In this document: positions 1,871 through 42,428 of the stretch, one piece after another
Layout: each line of letters opens with the position of its first letter
How positions within the stretch are numbered: position 1 is the first letter of the stretch
Source: an uncultured Gammaproteobacteria bacterium
GTDB taxonomy: Bacteria; Patescibacteriota; Microgenomatia; UBA10105; UBA927
NCBI GenBank assembly: GCA_964596355.1
Contig: CAZQTD010000005.1
Span: forward strand, 1-63,114
Length of the DNA stretch: 63,114 nt
Reading direction: 5' to 3'
Made by a program: the position numbers and the translations under genes
The notes under the pieces: model-generated
What the model was told of the DNA's origin: nothing
What the model saw: the letters and a program-made list of their open reading frames with translations, nothing else
Database searches by the model: none

Positions 1871-3329
1871 GGTCGTTGCTGTTGTTTTTTTTGCCGCTTA
1901 CCTTGTTGTCGGGTTGAGTATCTTCCGCGATTACGGTCTCTCATGGGACGAGCCGATTTCACGTTTAAACGGCATCAAAGCGTACAGGTACGTGTTTGAA
2001 GGTGACAAATCGCTGTTCCGGTATCGGGATCGCTATTACGGTACGGCATTCGAGTTGCCGTTGTACGCACTGGAGAAATGGTCGGGGATTACTGATCCGG
2101 AGAGGATCTTTTTCTTTCGTCACGCCATCACGTTTCTGTTGTTTTATATCAGTGCAGTTATCTTTCATCGTCTTTGTGCAGAAACATTTCATAGCCATTG
2201 GCGGGGCTTACTTGGTGTACTTCTTTATATTCTGCACCCTCGGATTTTTGCCGATAGTTTTTACAATTCCAAAGATATCGCGTTTTCGTCTGCATTTGTC
2301 ATCGCCGTCTACACCGGGTTGCGGTTTGTCCGGAAGCCGACCGTGCTTCGGGCTGTGGTTTTTGCTGTAGCAGCAAGTTTTGCGACGGATATTCGCATTG
2401 CCGGAGGACTGGTGTATCTTCTTATACTTCCGCAGATACTCTGGTCTTATCGGAAAAAACTGAACAATCTGTTCAAGCCGCTGGCCGTTTGTATCGGAGC
2501 GTCAGTCGGTTTTACCTATGCATTCTGGCCTGTTTTGTGGAGCAATCCTTTGGATCGTTTTTTTGAGGCGCTGCGGTATATGAGTTCATTTTCTCAATAC
2601 GAGAACGGCATGTTGTATATGGGGAAACAGACGTGGTCGCATACGGCGCCCTGGCATTATTTATTTGTCTGGATAGGGATTACCACACCGGTCGCACTCC
2701 TTGCATTATCCGTTCTTGGTTTTGTCAGGATACTTATGAAACGGAATGCGTGGGGATTGATGATGGCGGCATGGGCCCTTGTTCCTCTCGTTGCTGTACT
2801 CATTACCCGCCCGGCTTTATATGACGGATGGCGGCAATTTTATTTCATCTATCCGGCTATCGTAGGGCTTGCACTTGAGGGACTTACCTATCTGTGGACG
2901 AAAGGGATACGGGTGCGCGGTGTCGCAGTCAGTGCGCTTGCGCTGACAGGAATACTGACCGTATCGTTCATGGTGCGCAATCATCCGTACCAGAACGTAT
3001 ATTTTAATGAGTTCGTAGGGGGCATCCGAGGCGCACAGCACCGTTTTGATCTTGACTATTGGGGACTTTCGTTTAAGCGGGGGTTGCAATATATCGCAAA
3101 AACAGATTCAGATTATCAGATTCCGGTATTTTTTGCGTTTGGTATCAAAGCACAGGCTGATTTCCTTCCGTTCGAAGATCGCCGTTTTATGCCGTTATCC
3201 GATGCGAACAAGGCCAGATATATTCTTTCAAATTTTCGGTGGCAGATGAATACACCCCCATATCCGGAAATCTATCATGTTGCGATTGATGGAGTGAAGA
3301 TTATGAGTGTATTCCAAGCTCCGGATTGA
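1860..3329 (+). CDS. GT-C (PMT_2/ArnT-like) membrane glycosyltransferase
   Basis: DYGLSWDEP motif after first TM, HPRIFADSFYNSKD, multiple TMs; ATG at 1860 overlaps upstream stop. Confidence 0.8.
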   Translation: MNSKVVAVVFFAAYLVVGLSIFRDYGLSWDEPISRLNGIKAYRYVFEGDKSLFRYRDRYYGTAFELPLYALEKWSGITDPERIFFFRHAITFLLFYISAVIFHRLCAETFHSHWRGLLGVLLYILHPRIFADSFYNSKDIAFSSAFVIAVYTGLRFVRKPTVLRAVVFAVAASFATDIRIAGGLVYLLILPQILWSYRKKLNNLFKPLAVCIGASVGFTYAFWPVLWSNPLDRFFEALRYMSSFSQYENGMLYMGKQTWSHTAPWHYLFVWIGITTPVALLALSVLGFVRILMKRNAWGLMMAAWALVPLVAVLITRPALYDGWRQFYFIYPAIVGLALEGLTYLWTKGIRVRGVAVSALALTGILTVSFMVRNHPYQNVYFNEFVGGIRGAQHRFDLDYWGLSFKRGLQYIAKTDSDYQIPVFFAFGIKAQADFLPFEDRRFMPLSDANKARYILSNFRWQMNTPPYPEIYHVAIDGVKIMSVFQAPD

Positions 3330-3383: not shown

Positions 3384-5615
3384 ATGCCCACACGCTTATT
3401 TGTCATTGGGAGTTTTACTCTATTTGGTATGGGAATTATACGGATATTTTTTCCGTATTTTTCATCCCCAACATACGCAGCCGTATCTTCTTGTACCACG
3501 TCAGTGAGTCCGACAAGCATGACACAGTCTTCAACTGGCATATTGGCATTTCGTGTTGAAAATACATCTTCCGAAACAATTCTTTGGGTAAAAGTATCCC
3601 GTCCGGATGATAGTTTTACGGTTAACGGTGCTTCTGCAGGCGGGTGGAATGCATCCAATACGGAAGAAGCAGGAACATTTAGCGGAGGATCCTCTATAGC
3701 CCCGTCAGGATCGGCATATTTTTCACTGAACGTTACTGCGGGTGGCAGTGTAGGAGATCCGGGAAGTTGGACCGTAGAAGTATCGGATGACAGCGGTGGT
3801 AGCTCTCCAACGACATGCACGGGCGACACAAGTGTGTCTATCACGGAAGGCAGCGGCGGGGGAGACACAACGGCACCTACAATTTCTGACATCGTTGTTT
3901 CCGACATTTCCGATACGCAGGCGAAAATTACCTGGACCACGGATGAGTCCGGAACAACAGTCGTTGATTACGGCACAACTGATGACTACGGATCCACGGC
4001 AACCGGTGACTCGGGAACATCGCATAGCGTGACAATTTCAAGTCTCACGGCAAATACGACGTATCACTATAATGTGAAAAGCGCGGATAGCGCAGGAAAT
4101 ACCGGTGAATCCGGAGATAATACGTTTGTGACAGCCAAACAGGGGACGACGACGACCACGACGGTAACCGGAACGACGCGCACAATTACCGCTACCGGCA
4201 CGCCGACGCCGGTTCCTGATAGGACGCCGCCCAAGACCACGATTGTTACCACGCTCAATAAACCCTTCACCGAGGCGCCGACCATAGAAGGCAAGGCAAC
4301 CGATCCAAGCGGCGTGGCTAAACTGGAATACTCGATTGATGACGGCAGGAATTTTCTTCCGATTGACGAGGTCGAAGGATTAGGGAAGGCGTCAGCGACG
4401 TTTACGTTTACCCCTTTGGGACTTTTGGACGATAACTACATCGTAAAAATCCGCGCAACAGACAGCAAAGGCAACACAGGGACAAGCAAGGGTGTCACGA
4501 TGGTGGTTGACCGCCTGCCGCCGTTAGTGGGCGGCGTGGTCTTGACGCTCGGGCCGCAGGTTATCGAACCAACGAAAGACGGAGCGCTGATCTTGCTTCC
4601 ACATGTTTCATACAACCTGACACTTTCTGCTGTTGGAGGCCCTACAGACATTCGTCTCGTAGGTAACCTAGGTAACCTCGGTACCCTACGCAAAAACCTC
4701 GACAATGGCCTCTGGAGTACGACGATCCGGTTTGATACGTCCGGGATGTACACGCTCTGGACACACGCAATTGATGGAGCGGGAAATATAAAAGACCATG
4801 CGTTTCCGTCATTCACTGTTGTTGAGCCCGGACGGGTATTTGGGGGGTCTGTCGCGGTGACCAATGGAACGCTCGTTGTGTATGTGCTTCATGATGATAC
4901 CAAGCGGTTTATCCTGTGGGATGGAGAAGCCTATGGGCAAAACAATCCGCTCCCATTATCCCATGACGGGTCATATGCATTGTATTTGCCTGCCGGCACG
5001 TATTATCTTGAAGTACGCGCGCCGGGGTATACGCGTGCGATTTCCCAAATTTTTTGGTTAGATAAAGGCGCACCAATTGTTGAACCAATTTACCTGACGC
5101 GAAAGCGCGCACTTCGTTTGGGACCGTTTCTTATTCCTCTGCCTGATTTCCGGCAGACAACCATACGATTGACGCTCACGACTCCGTCTATGGACGCGCC
5201 AGCAAGCAGCGTCCGCGATGTGACTGGCGAAGAACTGCCGTATTTTCGGCTTCCTTCTGATGATACGATGATCGCAAGTACGTCGTTGCGCGGCAAACCA
5301 ACAATTATTACCTTCCTTAATTCTTGGTTGCCCCATACGCCGGAACAGCTGGCTGTCTTGCAGGAGCTTGCCCAAAAAAAGGAAATTCATGTGGTAAGCA
5401 TTTTTCCACAAGAAACCGCGGCGGCAGTTTCCATTTTTCGAAAACGGGGGGATTACGCAATCCCGATCATCGCGGATCCCGACGGCACGCTCATAGAAGC
5501 ACTTGGCCTGACATCCTTTCCTGCTCACGTGTTTGTCAGCCGTAAAGGGATTATCGAGAGAGTGGCGACGGGCTTGCTAACAAAGGAGGAGTTGTTGGAT
5601 AACGTGTTAAAATAG
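3384..5615 (+). CDS. Secreted/surface protein: Ig-like and FN3 (purple acid phosphatase N-terminal-like) domains, Thr-rich linker, carboxypeptidase-regulatory-like segment, C-terminal redoxin-fold domain lacking CxxC
   Basis: Signal/TM N-terminus; 'AKITWTTDE...VDYGTT...HSVTISSLTANTTYHYNVKSAD' FN3 motif; 'D.TPP' Ig repeats; C-terminal 'LRGKPTIITFLNSW...DPDG...SFPAHVFV' AhpC/TSA-like. Confidence 0.7.
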   Translation: MPTRLFVIGSFTLFGMGIIRIFFPYFSSPTYAAVSSCTTSVSPTSMTQSSTGILAFRVENTSSETILWVKVSRPDDSFTVNGASAGGWNASNTEEAGTFSGGSSIAPSGSAYFSLNVTAGGSVGDPGSWTVEVSDDSGGSSPTTCTGDTSVSITEGSGGGDTTAPTISDIVVSDISDTQAKITWTTDESGTTVVDYGTTDDYGSTATGDSGTSHSVTISSLTANTTYHYNVKSADSAGNTGESGDNTFVTAKQGTTTTTTVTGTTRTITATGTPTPVPDRTPPKTTIVTTLNKPFTEAPTIEGKATDPSGVAKLEYSIDDGRNFLPIDEVEGLGKASATFTFTPLGLLDDNYIVKIRATDSKGNTGTSKGVTMVVDRLPPLVGGVVLTLGPQVIEPTKDGALILLPHVSYNLTLSAVGGPTDIRLVGNLGNLGTLRKNLDNGLWSTTIRFDTSGMYTLWTHAIDGAGNIKDHAFPSFTVVEPGRVFGGSVAVTNGTLVVYVLHDDTKRFILWDGEAYGQNNPLPLSHDGSYALYLPAGTYYLEVRAPGYTRAISQIFWLDKGAPIVEPIYLTRKRALRLGPFLIPLPDFRQTTIRLTLTTPSMDAPASSVRDVTGEELPYFRLPSDDTMIASTSLRGKPTIITFLNSWLPHTPEQLAVLQELAQKKEIHVVSIFPQETAAAVSIFRKRGDYAIPIIADPDGTLIEALGLTSFPAHVFVSRKGIIERVATGLLTKEELLDNVLK

Positions 5616-15233: not shown

Positions 15234-15279
15234 TAATTAATATATTTGACTACCACGTGGTAGTCAAATATATTAATTA
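15234..15279. repeat. Perfect 46-bp palindrome (23-bp arms, no loop)
   Basis: TAATTAATATATTTGACTACCAC|GTGGTAGTCAAATATATTAATTA. Confidence 0.92.
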
Positions 15280-28817: not shown

Positions 28818-28921
28818 AAATCCTAAATTCCAAATTCTACATCCAAAATAAATTCAAATGCTCAAAATTCTAATTAGAAATTGAAACCTTGATAGTATTT
28901 TGGATTTTGAGTTTAGGATTT
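28818..28921. repeat. Heptamer repeat footprint with nested inverted repeats, overlapping rplJ 3' end
   Basis: AAATCCTAAA 28818-28827 / TTTAGGATTT 28912-28921; ATCCAAAATA 28841-28850 / TATTTTGGAT 28896-28905. Confidence 0.8.
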
Positions 28922-29446
28922 TGAATTTTTTATGCCATTAAGCGCCCATACGAGTCTATTGATATTCCAGCTTAATGCGTCGTGCAGTCTCTGGATTGGC
29001 GCGTTGAGGTTTGCAACAAATTTGGTCCGTAGGATATCGGCGGAGGGCAGTTGCGCCAGTCTGGCGACCTCTTGGTGATCTAGTGCGTTGCCGGAAAGGA
29101 AGCCGCCTTTAATGCTTCCCGCGCCTGCGCTGGCAAAAAACTTCATAAGCTCTTTAATCGGCGACACTTCATCCGCGTACGCAAACAGTGCAGCGCTTGA
29201 ATCGGAGAGAAATGTTTTGACAGCATCCGTATTGCTTTCTTCGCCGCGGGGCAGGCCGTCAAGCGATCGAAGCATGAGTCTGTTTTTAACAACGACGAAT
29301 TCTCCCTCAACCTTTTTAAGGAGCTTTCGGAGTTCTTCCAGCTGTTTGTGCTTCAGGCCTTTATAGTTAGCAAACACGATAGACTTTGCTTTTGCCACCT
29401 TATTTGCGAGTTTGGCAACAGTATCGATTTTTTTCTGTGTTGGCAT
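28913..29446 (-). CDS. rplJ: 50S ribosomal protein L10
   Basis: KK..V..L..K, YKGL, VVKNRL, KGGFL, LAQLPS. Confidence 0.95.
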   Translation of the reverse strand: MPTQKKIDTVAKLANKVAKAKSIVFANYKGLKHKQLEELRKLLKKVEGEFVVVKNRLMLRSLDGLPRGEESNTDAVKTFLSDSSAALFAYADEVSPIKELMKFFASAGAGSIKGGFLSGNALDHQEVARLAQLPSADILRTKFVANLNAPIQRLHDALSWNINRLVWALNGIKNSKS

Positions 29447-29590: not shown

Positions 29591-29790
29591 AAAAAATCCC
29601 GCCTAAAGCGGGGGCGTCGGTAAGTAGCAACGCACGGCATGGTGTTGCGTTGAAAGACTTGTGTCTTTACGACGCACCAACGCAACGCGGTGACCAGCTA
29701 CTTAATGTTCCCTCGGTAGGATTTATTTCGCTTCGCTCAATCCTTCTGTTGGTGGGACTTTGCGTCGCTCAACCTACGGTCTTTAGGATA
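29591..29790 (-). promoter_or_regulatory. L10 leader with downstream attenuator-like hairpin
   Basis: Minus strand AAAGACCGTAGG...AAATCCTACCGAGG core, then CCCGC-TTTA-GGCGGG + ATTTTTT; located upstream of rplJ. Confidence 0.75.
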
Positions 29791-29795
29791 AAGAG

Positions 29796-29825
29796 ATTAT
29801 ATCAAACGTTCGTAGGCCGATGCAA
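29796..29825 (-). promoter_or_regulatory. Putative rplJL promoter (TTGCAT-18-TATAAT)
   Basis: Hexamers directly upstream of the L10 leader. Confidence 0.55.
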
Positions 29826-29970
29826 GCGGCGTGGTGTAACAGCATTAGGTGAACATGTTTAGAAAACGATGAACAGATTCAGAATTCGATATTGTTGGCC
29901 TACAATGTCACTCATGTACAGCTGTATCCAATCCCGCTGGGACGGCAGGAAAAATGAATATAGGGCAGGG

Positions 29971-30002
29971 ACCATAGGGAAACAGAACCATAGGGAAACA
30001 GA
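29971..30002. repeat. 16-bp tandem duplication ACCATAGGGAAACAGA x2
   Basis: Direct reading. Confidence 0.85.
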
Positions 30003-30058
30003 ACTATTCAAGAGGAGAACATAATAGGATCTGTTCAATAGATATATTCATTAAATCA

Positions 30059-30089
30059 AAAAATATGGTAATTTCAACCACGGTCGTGG
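30059..30089 (+). repeat. Left copy of perfect 31-bp inverted repeat flanking PaaX-like gene
   Basis: AAAAATATGGTAATTTCAACCACGGTCGTGG equals reverse complement of 30947-30977. Confidence 0.92.
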
Positions 30090-30095
30090 GATGAA

Positions 30096-30122
30096 TTGAC
30101 ATATATTTTTTAGGAGTATAAT
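30096..30122 (+). promoter_or_regulatory. Consensus TTGACA/TATAAT promoter with short 15-nt spacer, next to the repeat
   Basis: TTGACA 30096-30101, TATAAT 30117-30122. Confidence 0.55.
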
Positions 30123-30156
30123 ATGAAGTTGGATGCGGCGTTTGTGATGCATAGAT

Positions 30157-30945
30157 ATGAAGCGAACAGCGGCTGACCTCCTGTTAGATCTTTCAGATGG
30201 TGCAATTAGCACGGTCGTTGATTTTACACTATGGTTTGTGGCGTTTAGCGCAGCGCTTTCGGTACCGCAATCGACGGTCGGTCAGCTTTACCGCGCACGC
30301 CGAACTGCGGATCGGTTTCTTTGGAAGATCAATTACGACGTTATCAAACGCGGATTAGCCGAAGCAAGGCGCAGGCACTGGTTTAAGCGAGGGAAAAAAG
30401 GAAAACGGGCGTGGCCTGAAATAACAAAAGCAGGAAAAAAGCGTTTTGCGGCGCTGTTTCCTGTATACGACGAAAAACGGATTTGGGACGGCGACATGTA
30501 TTTAATTACGTATGATATCCCTGAAAAGCGGCGCAATGACAGAGACCTTATCAGGGACTATGCCAAGCGGATACGAGGAGCAAAGCTCCAAGAGTCGGTC
30601 TATCTGACGCCGTATGATCCCAGAAAGCTGATTGCTGAATTTATCGAAACCCACAGGATACAGGGGACGATCATCATATCTGACATCGGAAAAGATGGAT
30701 CCATAGGAGATGAATCGCTAACGGAGCTAGTATACAGAGTGTATGGCCTTGACGCGCTCAACGAGCGATACAAAGAGTGGCTAACTGAAGTAAAAGGCGA
30801 AACCATCGATCATTGGGCTGCGCTGCGGTATTTGTCGATTCTACGCGATGACCCGCAGCTGCCTTTTCCGCTGTTGCCTCCATGGTGGAAAGGAAAAGAA
30901 GCGTACGAGCGCGTAAAGCCGTTCCTAAAAAATATGGTAAAATGA
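30157..30945 (+). CDS. PaaX-like regulator: wHTH-like region, Cas2-like central domain, PaaX_C-like tail
   Basis: 'EITKAGKKR', 'WDGDMYLITYDIPEKRR..RD', 'KLQESVYL', 'DDPQLPFPLLPPWWKG..A'. Confidence 0.85.
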   Translation: MKRTAADLLLDLSDGAISTVVDFTLWFVAFSAALSVPQSTVGQLYRARRTADRFLWKINYDVIKRGLAEARRRHWFKRGKKGKRAWPEITKAGKKRFAALFPVYDEKRIWDGDMYLITYDIPEKRRNDRDLIRDYAKRIRGAKLQESVYLTPYDPRKLIAEFIETHRIQGTIIISDIGKDGSIGDESLTELVYRVYGLDALNERYKEWLTEVKGETIDHWAALRYLSILRDDPQLPFPLLPPWWKGKEAYERVKPFLKNMVK

Positions 30946-30946
30946 G

Positions 30947-30977
30947 CCACGACCGTGGTTGAAATTACCATATTTTT
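30947..30977 (-). repeat. Right copy of perfect 31-bp inverted repeat; part of a larger imperfect palindrome 30928-30977
   Basis: CCACGACCGTGGTTGAAATTACCATATTTTT; AAAAATATGGTAA 30928-30940 pairs with its last 13 nt. Confidence 0.92.
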
Positions 30978-31008
30978 CTTGGAAAGTATTGGAAAACATT
31001 AATTTGAT

Positions 31009-31074
31009 ATGGCTATGGTTATGACTATGACTATGACTATGACTATGACTATGACTATGGTCATAGTCATGGCT
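31009..31074. repeat. Hexamer microsatellite (ATGACT)6 with degenerate flanking units
   Basis: ATGGCT ATGGTT (ATGACT)x6 at 31021-31056, then ATGGTC ATAGTC ATGGCT. Confidence 0.92.
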
Positions 31075-31404: not shown

Positions 31405-32307
31405 TTAGACAAGAGCGAGTTTAATTCCCGGCCCCATGGTGGCAGTCAGCGTCGCTTTGGTGATTTTGCCCGGGCCGATGGCTTTAATGACCGCAGAAAC
31501 GTTCTCTATGAGCTTTTTGTCATCGAATGACACTTTGCCCACGCTCATATGGATGATGGGCTGATCGGGTTCAGTTTTAACGTGCACACTCCCGCTGCGC
31601 AGCTCTTCGGCGCGCTTTTCGGGATTGTCTGTTACTGTTCCATTCTTTGGGTTGGGCATCAGGCCCTTTGGTCCTAATATGCGTGCAACCTTTGCAAGCT
31701 TGGGCATCATGCTTGGGTGGGCAACAAGAATGTCGAAAGCAATCCTGCCGGCTTCAACGTCTGCCACAAGGGCGTCATCGGCTATAGCCACCGTCACTTC
31801 CTTGCCGGTTCCATGAGGGAGGTTCACGGTAGCGCGCATATCTTTCTTGTTTTCAAGGGTGAGAGGATTGAGGTTTAGATGAAGTTCCACCGTGCCGTCG
31901 AACTTCGTGAGGCTGGTTTGTTTCACCAGACTGACGGCGTCGCGCAGCGAGTACTGTTTGGTTTTATCAACCAGCGACGCTTTTTCCGTGTACCTTTTGC
32001 TTCTTGTACGCGCCTTTTTTTGTTTCTTTTTGCCGCCGCCCTTGTCCGCCGAAGCATCGCCGGTTGTCGGCGGTTCGCCGCTGTGGACCTCCTCGATAAG
32101 CTTTTTAAATTCCGGTTTAATCTCCGTGCCTTCAACGACCGCGACGCGTTCTCCGCCATGAAGCCCAACGCCTTCCACTCGTTGCTTGCCCCGAGTTTTT
32201 TCGAGGGTTTTTTTGGACTTTTTGGTGTCGCGCCTTGCTTCTGCACGACGGCGCTGCTCTTTTTCAAGAGATTCATCGCCCAATGTGGCAACTCTAATTT
32301 TACCCAT
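31405..32307 (-). CDS. rplA: 50S ribosomal protein L1 with ~100-aa charged N-terminal extension
   Basis: TKFDGTVE, LPHGTGK, ILGPKGLMPNPKNGTV, TMGPG. Confidence 0.95.
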   Translation of the reverse strand: MGKIRVATLGDESLEKEQRRRAEARRDTKKSKKTLEKTRGKQRVEGVGLHGGERVAVVEGTEIKPEFKKLIEEVHSGEPPTTGDASADKGGGKKKQKKARTRSKRYTEKASLVDKTKQYSLRDAVSLVKQTSLTKFDGTVELHLNLNPLTLENKKDMRATVNLPHGTGKEVTVAIADDALVADVEAGRIAFDILVAHPSMMPKLAKVARILGPKGLMPNPKNGTVTDNPEKRAEELRSGSVHVKTEPDQPIIHMSVGKVSFDDKKLIENVSAVIKAIGPGKITKATLTATMGPGIKLALV

Positions 32308-32378
32308 AATTCGTTAGTTGGTTATTTCGTTAATTCGTATGTTGCTTTACGAAGTAACGAACGAACTGGTATCGCTAA
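32308..32378. repeat. Octamer repeat footprint (TTCGTTAG/TTGGTTAT .. TTACGAA/CTAACTAA) between rplK and rplA
   Basis: TTCGTAA/TTACGAA inverted pair; same repeat vocabulary as 42203-42447. Confidence 0.7.
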
Positions 32379-41676: not shown

Positions 41677-42201
41677 CTACCGAATAAGGCGAATGGTTTG
41701 GACAGCGTTATTGTACGTTTGCCCGTAGCCGGCGATAAAAACGTCCATCCCGTTGGTCGGATGAGTGAAGAGAAGCGCGTCAATGGGTGTACCGTCTTTG
41801 GCTGACGTTTCGTGGTAGAGCGAGGCTTTTACTCCAGGGGTGCCTGCGGCGCTTGCAATATCAACTGACTCGATTTGTCCAAGCGGCAGAGAAGAACGAG
41901 GGATATCTTGTTTGCACATAATGACGATTGCGTTATTTGGATCTTCAGGATTACTCAAAATCGCGCTGCCACTGGCGTTTTCCAATTTTTGAAACCCGTT
42001 AGGGATCGTAAGCGAAAAGCCGCAGTAGGAGTTGGTATAGAGCGACCCGGTTTGGTCAACGGCAGTCATTGGTTGTGCGGCTTGAGGCGTCGGTGCTGGT
42101 TCACTCATCGTTTTTCCAAACTTTCGTCCCACGTTGACGCCCAAAACCAATGCGGCAAAGACAGCTAGAAGCGTGATGACAAGGTACGTGTTGCGGTGCA
42201 T
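41677..42201 (-). CDS. Hypothetical secreted/single-TM protein
   Basis: N-terminal TM, 'YTNSYCGFSLTIP' PsbP-like start. Confidence 0.6.
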   Translation of the reverse strand: MHRNTYLVITLLAVFAALVLGVNVGRKFGKTMSEPAPTPQAAQPMTAVDQTGSLYTNSYCGFSLTIPNGFQKLENASGSAILSNPEDPNNAIVIMCKQDIPRSSLPLGQIESVDIASAAGTPGVKASLYHETSAKDGTPIDALLFTHPTNGMDVFIAGYGQTYNNAVQTIRLIR

Positions 42202-42214
42202 TGTTCGTTTATTG

Positions 42215-42428
42215 GTTAGTTCGTTAATTCGTTAGTTCGATTATATCTCAAATTTTTGAGTGAGAGGTACACATTCATACCATGATCCTTGAGCAATAGT
42301 AAGAAATCGATATTCATTTGGCCATCGGCTTGTAACGTGATATATCAGAAGAGAAAATTGGAAGGCCTCTTGATAGACCCGGAGTTCTTCAAATGTAAAC
42401 TTCATGTGCTTCGAATTAACGAACTAAC
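42215..42428. mobile_element. Four-helix-bundle remnant flanked by a perfect 17-bp inverted repeat made of octamer repeats
   Basis: GTTAGTTCGTTAATTCG 42215-42231 / CGAATTAACGAACTAAC 42412-42428; mobility is inferred. Confidence 0.55.
42241..42405 (-). pseudogene. Internally deleted four-helix-bundle gene (54 aa) not in the supplied ORF track
   Basis: MKFTFEELRVYQEAFQFSLLIYHVTSRWPNEYRFL-TIAQGSWYECVPLTQKFEI*; central SQ.RRA..S...NIAEG segment missing. Confidence 0.75.

Follow-up and report, generated by a model that had tools for sequence, protein, structure and literature searches.

The window analysed here, a stretch of 63,114 nucleotides from contig CAZQTD010000005.1 of an uncultured bacterium, contains a gene for a 262-amino-acid protein in the spacer between the ribosomal protein genes rplJ and rplA. 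The gene is located on the strand opposite to both neighbours and is enclosed by a perfect 31-bp inverted repeat with the left arm AAAAATATGGTAATTTCAACCACGGTCGTGG. This repeat had been noticed in the initial annotation of the sequence, and comparison of both arms confirmed the exact match. A third match to AAAAATATGGTAATTTCAACCACGGTCGTGG was not found in the 63 kb when up to 3 mismatches were allowed (chance expectation 0), nor did the 63 kb contain a further copy of the complete site or of its half-site.

The flanking palindromes and their genomic position

Each end of the repeat is part of a larger, imperfect palindrome with a CCACG-NN-CGTGG core, as the initial annotation had described. The upstream palindrome is called U and the downstream palindrome D in the following (Table 1). 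In the window the core was found only at 30078-30089 and 30947-30958, at an expected number of 0.06. The arms of D are complementary at 83% of their positions. U extends into the promoter of the gene, and the -35 hexamer TTGACA sits within its right arm. The left arm of D (AAA AAT ATG GTA AAA TGA, 30928-30945) encodes K-N-M-V-K-stop, the last five codons and the stop codon of the gene. Both overlaps had been claimed before and were reproduced here. Neither the left half of U nor the right half of D is under promoter or coding constraint, and these two halves are identical. Their perfect identity over 31 bp is probably due to selection together with gene conversion between the arms. Rfam yielded nothing real for U, D or the flanking sequences.

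The unit of gene and palindromes had been placed inside a ribosomal protein gene cluster. This is accurate; more exactly, it occupies the spacer between two operons, upstream of the conserved rplJ promoter and leader. Since promoter and leader are intact outside the unit, neither operon is disrupted. At the outer edges of the unit (AAATCAA on the left, CTTGGAA on the right) no target-site duplication was visible, in line with the earlier description.

A chimeric or artefactual origin of the repeat, whose length equals k = 31, was considered and rejected. Logan contigs assembled from SRR10095373 and SRR10095374, two sequencing runs, match the window with 100% identity. Their ends fall in the repeat, with one contig (L080) spanning 30060-30976 and two others (L082, L083) stopping at 30088, because the 31-mer is present in both orientations in a k = 31 graph. 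Thus, two independent assemblies reproduce the sequence, without resolving the orientation of the inner segment.

Table 1: Features of the unit and of its surroundings in the window
Feature	Positions	Strand	Remarks
Upstream palindrome U	30059-30108	none	arms 30059-30082 and 30085-30108 around GT; putative operator over the promoter
Perfect 31-bp inverted repeat, left arm	30059-30089	+	AAAAATATGGTAATTTCAACCACGGTCGTGG; left half of U plus core
Promoter-like site	30096-30124	+	TTGACA 30096-30101, 17-nt spacer, TAATAT 30119-30124; 10 of 12 consensus positions
PaaX-family gene, 262 amino acids	30157-30945	+	Pfam, profile alignment, AlphaFold2/Foldseek, 378 homologues
Downstream palindrome D	30928-30977	none	arms 30928-30951 and 30954-30977 around AC; putative second operator
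Perfect 31-bp inverted repeat, right arm	30947-30977	-	core plus right half of D; exact reverse complement of AAAAATATGGTAATTTCAACCACGGTCGTGG
rplJ (ribosomal protein L10)	28913-29446	-	Pfam Ribosomal_L10
rplA (ribosomal protein L1)	31405-32307	-	convergent with the regulator gene; 74% identical to rplA of locus L021
rplJ promoter and leader blocks	29709-29826	-	CTTGCA...TGATATAAT; invariant in 5 Gottesmanbacteria loci; outside the unit, intact

A distant member of the PaaX family

The encoded protein matched the Pfam domain PaaX_M with 46.7 bits (cutoff 24; 3.6e-12), and its PaaX_C score of 19.7 was just under the cutoff of 22. The Cas2 domain PF09827 was marginal (23.9, cutoff 23.8), and TIGR01573 remained under its cutoff. 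The PaaX equivalog model TIGR02277 gave 41.2 bits against a cutoff of 264.55. No transposase, Y1_Tnp or recombinase domain was detected in the protein by Pfam. A profile of the family aligned to residues 57-270 of E. coli PaaX, which include the recognition helix, the wing, WDG and the motif DP.LP..LP..W.G. The C-terminal PaaX domain carries the motif DDPQLPF..WWKG, and the winged helix at the N-terminus of the protein is matched in part only. An AlphaFold2 model had an overall pLDDT of 81. The best Foldseek matches of this model were PaaX (8A39; 1.4e-6) and Rv0674 (3KFW), followed by many Cas2 structures for the middle domain.

Judged by its sequence, the protein is a distant member of the PaaX family and neither PaaX proper nor Cas2. 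The three-domain architecture of PaaX, with a winged helix, a Cas2-like middle domain and a helical C-terminal domain, is present in a broad sense. The description of the gene as PaaX/Cas2-like in the initial annotation agrees with the PaaX_M match, the Cas2-like middle domain and the structural matches. The Cas2-like beta1 motif YDIPE contains an Asp that is invariant across the family; E. coli PaaX is without YDIPE. Some database records label homologues as "Cas2", and these labels are corrected by the assignment to the PaaX family. A CRISPR-like repeat array was not found in the 63 kb; cas1 was not searched for systematically. No linkage to paa catabolic genes was found: no neighbour is conserved in 79 loci of the family, and the gene in the window directly adjoins ribosomal protein and hydrogenase genes; the whole window was not scanned with Pfam for paa genes.

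Paired palindromes across the family

Homologues were found in Gottesmanbacteria and other Microgenomates and amounted to 378 at 90% clustering (157 clusters at 50% identity with E ≤ 1e-30). From these, 79 loci were fetched and 76 were compared for pairing of U and D. For each locus the region upstream of the start codon was compared with the region around the stop codon, and non-cognate pairs served as the null. In a joint search over 48 nt the U-D identity was above the 99th percentile of this null in 64 of the 76 loci. The null had a mean of 25.8 and a 99th percentile of 31, and the window reached 39. In an ungapped match used as a control the median score was 16 for cognate and 8 for non-cognate pairs. 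A common core was visible also in several loci below the 48-nt threshold. Consequently, the expectation that PaaX-like homologues are each flanked by their own cognate palindrome pair was confirmed for most loci.

The paired sites are palindromes of ~44-48 bp, and their sequence differs from locus to locus. Their cores include GCGGCCGC, GCACGTGC, GCTATAGC, CCGACCGG and CACGGTCGTG, each combined with different outer arms. Three metagenome-assembled genomes (MAGs) contributed 4 loci each to the 79 loci, corresponding to at least 4 diverged paralogues per genome, and paralogues in one genome carry distinct sites. When the sites were aligned at their centres, symmetry and U-D identity peaked at ~0.8-0.97 at positions 2-4 and 14-17 and were 0.6-0.9 over positions 2-5 and 11-21. 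Values of ~0.3-0.6 were observed at positions 7-10, with a decay past position 22. The conservation is bipartite, with a core and outer arms, and resembles a footprint. The outer arms are centred ~30 bp apart. Within one synteny group the cores of orthologues differ (GCTATAGC, GCGGCCGC and CGACCGG), and the change was found at both U and D. Long palindromes are largely confined to this family in the loci analysed: in 678 kb of sequence, 20 of 25 belong to family genes. The site divergence correlated with the divergence of the whole protein in a partial Mantel analysis (r ~0.36-0.39). U and D are arranged as direct copies in 43 loci and as inverted copies in 21, at a median distance of 854 bp, and their central dinucleotides are not conserved between U and D.

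U lies over the promoter. In most loci the cognate palindrome overlaps the -35 hexamer or the spacer between -35 and -10. In the commonest class TTGACA is found at +12 to +17 from the centre of U, and in a second class the core lies between a -35 hexamer in the left arm and a -10 hexamer in the right arm. In at least 14 loci the longest open reading frame (ORF) has its start codon at +46 to +49 relative to the centre of U. This is where the transcript of such a promoter would begin, and the mRNAs of the family are therefore probably leaderless. In the window an in-frame ATG at 30133 occupies the canonical leaderless position and is followed by a TGA stop codon at 30145. From the ORF start at 30157 the leader would be ~25 nt long, and it has no clear Shine-Dalgarno sequence. 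Additionally, AGGAG (30111) and ATG (30123) could be the beginning of a 17-codon ORF in a different frame which overlaps the start of the main ORF (30111-30176). The 5' end and start codon assigned to the window copy are tentative.

D keeps to the stop codon. The median position of its centre is +7 relative to the stop, and in 51 of the 64 loci the stop codon falls within its 48-bp span. Of the 24 loci where at least 150 bp of free DNA is available downstream, 17 still have D at the stop codon, compared to an expectation of 18% (p ~3e-8, although the orthologues among them are not independent cases). The C-terminal tails of the proteins vary, and their sequence is set by the site; ...LRPQ, for example, is encoded by CTGCGGCCGCAA. 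D often has no TTGAC as present in U and keeps the symmetric outer bases; it is thus a copy of the site without the promoter. A role of D as promoter of the next gene was rejected, since the downstream neighbour may lie on either strand (32 on the plus and 44 on the minus strand) and TTGAC is often missing. As RNA, D of the window folds with -21.8 kcal/mol on the plus strand (z = -6.4) and -19.4 kcal/mol on the minus strand, with an A-tract on one side of the hairpin and a U-tract on the other. D may act as a bidirectional hairpin terminator.

Some loci deviate from the simple pair. In L019 three perfect direct 45-bp copies of AAAACTGTATTTCCAGGTGCGGCCGCATTTCTATTGATTGTTTT (~2960-3005, 3880-3925 and 4735-4780) bracket the family gene and a divergent gene for a 260-amino-acid protein without Pfam match. 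A third copy of the site also brackets the neighbouring gene in L042 (membrane protein) and L053 (LytR_C protein). In L077 (3971-4677 of the complete chromosome OY969569.1) the family gene is split into two ORFs with both palindromes intact (18 of 22 arm positions each), which represents either a recent pseudogene or a frameshift error of the assembly.

Function of the paired sites

The layout was compared with known systems. PaaX is the phenylacetyl-CoA-responsive repressor of E. coli and Pseudomonas. It recognizes TGATTC-N27-GAATCA and keeps Px, its own promoter, repressed by sterically hindering RNA polymerase (PMC9493321). The window protein is homologous to PaaX (8A39) over the recognition helix, the wing, the Cas2-like middle domain and the C-terminal helical domain. 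Both share a long palindrome with widely spaced half-sites that overlaps the promoter, at a geometry of similar scale. In contrast to PaaX, the window family keeps YDIPE, PaaX_N is not detected and the protein is not an equivalog. Family genes stand alone without a conserved neighbour, whereas paaX overlaps and is co-transcribed with paaY. Moreover, the family comprises several diverged paralogues with different sites in genomes of ~1 Mb, and has a second cognate site on the stop codon; a check of the E. coli K-12 paaX locus for a similar site pair found none. LacI occupies O3 at the 3' end of lacI and forms a loop to O1; the lacI transcript is thereby truncated, and its protein product receives an SsrA tag and is degraded (PMC3711431). 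The window shares with lacI a putative operator at the 3' end of the repressor gene itself and a second one for potential looping. It differs in the unrelated protein family. In addition, the lacI promoter carries no operator of its own, O3 being part of the adjacent lac control region, whereas in the window both sites would serve the same gene at ~870 bp; a roadblock is hypothetical here.

In the immunity region of lambdoid phages cI lies between OL and OR, repressors and operators form matched immunity types, and looping sharpens autoregulation. The window gene would likewise be a repressor gene bracketed by cognate operators. However, the lambda system is that of a phage with triple 17-bp operators on lytic promoters, and the window unit is chromosomal and vertically inherited, with one palindrome per side. 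The middle domain shares the ferredoxin-like fold and the conserved beta1 Asp with Cas2/VapD, but Cas2 is a stand-alone protein of ~90-100 amino acids beside Cas1 and a CRISPR array, and the domain of the window is embedded in a 262-amino-acid PaaX-type protein. An autoregulated repressor with an auxiliary operator is a known arrangement, of which a family-wide PaaX-type variant is encountered here. Full-text searches of the literature on PaaX, on Cas2 and on regulators of Patescibacteria (candidate phyla radiation, CPR) yielded nothing that describes the two-palindrome layout.

On the basis of sequence comparison, we consider it fairly probable that the gene encodes a distant repressor of the PaaX family and that both ~50-bp palindromes are its own cognate operators. 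Protein bound at U would cover the -35 hexamer and exclude RNA polymerase, resulting in negative autoregulation as for PaaX at Px; in loci of the second promoter class, the polymerase would be kept out likewise. Protein at D could have one or both of two roles. It could cooperate with U by looping of the ~870-bp gene, or it could form a roadblock at the end of the gene which halts the polymerase before the stop codon is transcribed. The latter is conceivable since in most loci the upstream edge of D coincides with the stop codon or precedes it, so that a stalled polymerase would not transcribe this codon. Such a roadblock would add a second layer of negative feedback, similar to LacI at O3, and lead to a truncated, SsrA-tagged product. 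As RNA, D might additionally serve as a bidirectional hairpin terminator. Among the mechanisms offered in the initial annotation, the autoregulated looped two-site switch fits best. It had also postulated a self-contained unit whose product recognizes both ends: the paired locus-specific sites and their concerted change bear this out, and the binding itself we infer.

Several observations weigh against the autorepressor. PaaX_N was not detected by Pfam in the 262-amino-acid protein, and the N-terminal DNA-binding domain was modelled with low confidence (pLDDT 45-77). The initial annotation had expected the sites to co-vary with residues of the helix-turn-helix; this was not observed, as the hypervariable columns 210-220 of the protein accounted for most of the mutual information with the site positions, and the partial Mantel analysis showed no specificity of the N-terminal domain in the co-divergence of site and protein. 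No helical phasing of the U-D distance was detected in 48 representatives (Rayleigh p > 0.26 for periods of 10-11.3 bp), a result that is neutral at this loop size. There is no obvious benefit of a repressor that controls only itself. By its position at the stop codon, D resembles an ordinary terminator hairpin just as much. The perfect identity at spacer positions outside the contacts (31 of 31 in the window, three 45-mers in L019) exceeds the needs of binding and thus points to homogenization or recent duplication. Finally, the invariant Cas2-type Asp and the cassette-like triplets are not explained by an autorepressor.

The main rival explanation is that only U is an operator and D is mainly an intrinsic bidirectional terminator, with the likeness of U and D resulting from duplication or gene conversion of a palindromic module. 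We regard this as unlikely, although the RNA fold of D with its A- and U-tracts, the convergence with rplA, outer positions 21-23 that are T-rich family-wide and a location right at the stop, typical of terminators in compact genomes, agree with it, as does the homogenization suggested by the perfect spacers of the window and L019. A terminator would have no need to match an operator, yet in D the core and outer arms follow those of U through many independent changes of specificity, while the spacer positions of D drift. The orthologues L015, L024 and L028 keep the core and outer arms of D with a spacer diverging from U, which indicates selection on the contacts rather than homogenization. Furthermore, the hairpins are broken by the non-symmetric positions 7-10, and D was not called in a terminator scan. 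Binding of the palindromes by another factor, or structural DNA that merely co-occurs with the family, is highly improbable. Here the binding by the encoded protein is deduced from sequence, and a similar perfect palindrome is found at 15234-15279 far from any family gene. But the concentration of long palindromes at the ends of family genes, the co-divergence of site and protein and a geometry on the scale of the known PaaX operator argue against a separate factor, which would need to diversify in step with every paralogue.

The unit might also be, or have been, a mobile, selfish or recombining cassette, in which the palindromes are terminal sites of recombination or processing and the Cas2-like domain is catalytic. 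By analogy, RAYT genes flanked by REP hairpins, the ends of IS200/IS605 elements or an invertible segment could be considered. RAYT/REP systems consist of one gene flanked by cognate palindromic repeats, with several families per genome and vertical inheritance, so that inheritance with the chromosome would not be foreign to such a cassette. The precise bracketing by cognate palindromes, in the window even by a perfect inverted repeat, the several paralogues per genome with a repeat each, the array-like third copies in L019, L042 and L053 and the invariant Asp in YDIPE, unlike E. coli PaaX, would suit this explanation, as would the variable position in the secE-nusG-rplKAJL region. The window gene lies between rplA and rplJ, whereas six loci have the family gene beside nusG (L021 has it directly between nusG and rplK), and in L029 the family gene is upstream of rplJ on the same strand. 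The distant L021 is the only case of a rplA-rplJ spacer (240 bp) without family gene. Of the empty rplA-rplJ alleles that the initial annotation had suggested looking for, close relatives offer no example: the nearest L10 proteins are just 62-63% identical, and the regions upstream of their rplJ genes are rearranged, containing HicAB pairs among other genes. In this lineage, genes have repeatedly been inserted or rearranged at the rplA-rplJ junction.

Nevertheless, we judge a mobile cassette very unlikely. No neighbouring gene is conserved across the 79 loci; instead, several synteny groups are found, and within them the family protein is, for example, 58-86% identical compared to 47-82% for the neighbours. 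The family protein diverges at the rate of its neighbours, which argues for vertical inheritance. Near-identical copies are lacking, the window has a single family gene and no copies of the site elsewhere in its 63 kb, and a metagenome-wide scan for the site of another member (L081) gave only its own U and D, a weak result as the rest of that genome may be unassembled. Relatives were not found in IMG/VR viral contigs, phage records or plasmid records. The mixed orientation of U and D permits no consistent topology of excision or inversion, and the unequal central dinucleotides and the missing target-site duplication also speak against recombination. A transposon or insertion sequence with terminal repeats was rejected for lack of a duplication, a known transposase or a second copy in the window, and because of the neighbour-like divergence and the absence from plasmids and phages. 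RAYT/REP and IS200/IS605 systems differ by their HUH Y1 transposase and dispersed repeats, in contrast to a transcription-factor fold with 2-3 sites, all at gene ends; a RAYT/REP system was rejected since Y1_Tnp is absent and the sites are not dispersed in the window, the metagenome scan or the 678 kb of loci. The invertible segment of the initial annotation is not supported either: the orientation is mixed, a recombinase domain is missing, and inversion would not switch the gene because promoter and coding sequence are both inside the repeats. Both palindromes would, however, be restored unchanged if the segment between the arms were inverted. A non-canonical mobile element or a nuclease module, which had also been proposed there, does not fit the results on orientation, synteny, divergence and copies. 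The recurrence of the two-site layout in most relatives, with a different palindrome for each gene copy, makes a self-repression device likelier than a mobile element, and we take it as the most likely interpretation.

A genuine Y1 transposase is available for comparison in L014 (1597-2371 and ~1240), where an IS200-like gene (Pfam Y1_Tnp, 6.9e-10) with its own GC-rich hairpins GCAAGGACTCTCCTTGC... adjoins the family gene. This REP/RAYT-like unit takes 2 of the 25 long palindromes in the 678 kb and differs from the family in its hairpins and its HUH-family protein.

With a rather low probability, gene and palindromes form a self-bracketing unit of an unrecognized kind, either a nicking cassette or a protein-dependent gene-boundary system. 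The cassette may be domesticated or selfish, and its Cas2-like domain may nick or process the possibly cruciform palindromes, as an analogue of RAYT/REP with a transcription-factor fold. If true, this could account for the arrays of L019 and L042 and for the gene's changing place within the nusG-rplKAJL region. The boundary version may represent a protein-dependent insulator or terminator system of the small-genome Microgenomates.

Patescibacteria genomes have few recognizable regulators, and almost nothing is known of their transcription control. The family offers matched pairs of protein and operator with sites that can be read from the sequence, from which rules of specificity for the PaaX fold may be derived. 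It also allows tests of autoregulation by looping and gene-end roadblock outside E. coli and is a source of candidate parts for synthetic biology.

Further palindromes and repeats in the window

A perfect 46-bp palindrome, TAATTAATATATTTGACTACCAC followed by GTGGTAGTCAAATATATTAATTA, was found at 15234-15279 and is one of the 25 long palindromes in the 678 kb. It is intergenic and located upstream of rpiB (15451), which is followed by rpe and tkt. TTGACT at -11 to -6 and TATATT at +13 to +18 from its centre correspond to the operator geometry of the second class. The palindrome is present as a single copy in the window with no family gene nearby; possibly it is an orphan operator that belongs to a paralogue located elsewhere. 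If it is a paralogue's target, the regulons of the family would extend beyond self-control, and its position upstream of rpiB hints at control of ordinary metabolic genes.

The leader of rplJ contains the blocks ATCCTAAAGACCGTAGGT (29789-29772) and ATAAATCCTACCGAGGGA (29726-29709) on the minus strand, with complementary GTAGG and CCTAC. Promoter and leader blocks are kept in the window, L021, L029, L084 and L086. The leader is probably an autoregulatory leader of L10; it gave no match in Rfam at gathering or relaxed thresholds. A terminator-like hairpin, CCCGCTTTAGGCGGG followed by a U run, lies at 29598-29612 on the minus strand, ~150 nt upstream of rplJ. A similar hairpin with a U run occurs in L021 and L086, and the element looks like a leader attenuator. 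In the closest L10 relatives, the Gottesmanbacteria loci L084, L085 and L086, rplJ is preceded by HicAB toxin-antitoxin pairs or a Trans_reg_C protein and not by rplA.

Between the unit and rplA, and likewise between the unit and the rplJ promoter, lies extra non-coding DNA. It contains an (ATGACT)n hexamer microsatellite of ~9 units just to the right of the unit (31008-31060) and an exact 16-bp tandem duplication, ACCATAGGGAAACAGA twice, just to the left (29971-30004); the overlying ORFs have no Pfam match. The L1 protein of the window comprises 300 amino acids with a Lys/Arg/Glu-rich N-terminal extension of ~75-100 residues. The rplA product of L021 is similarly long (~295 amino acids) and 74% identical over the full length. 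Repeats rich in TTCGTTA (e.g., GTTCGTTAATTCGTTAG) are found at the rplK-rplA junction (32305-32343) and again ~10 kb away (42199-42245), and L021 has a comparable motif beside rplK.

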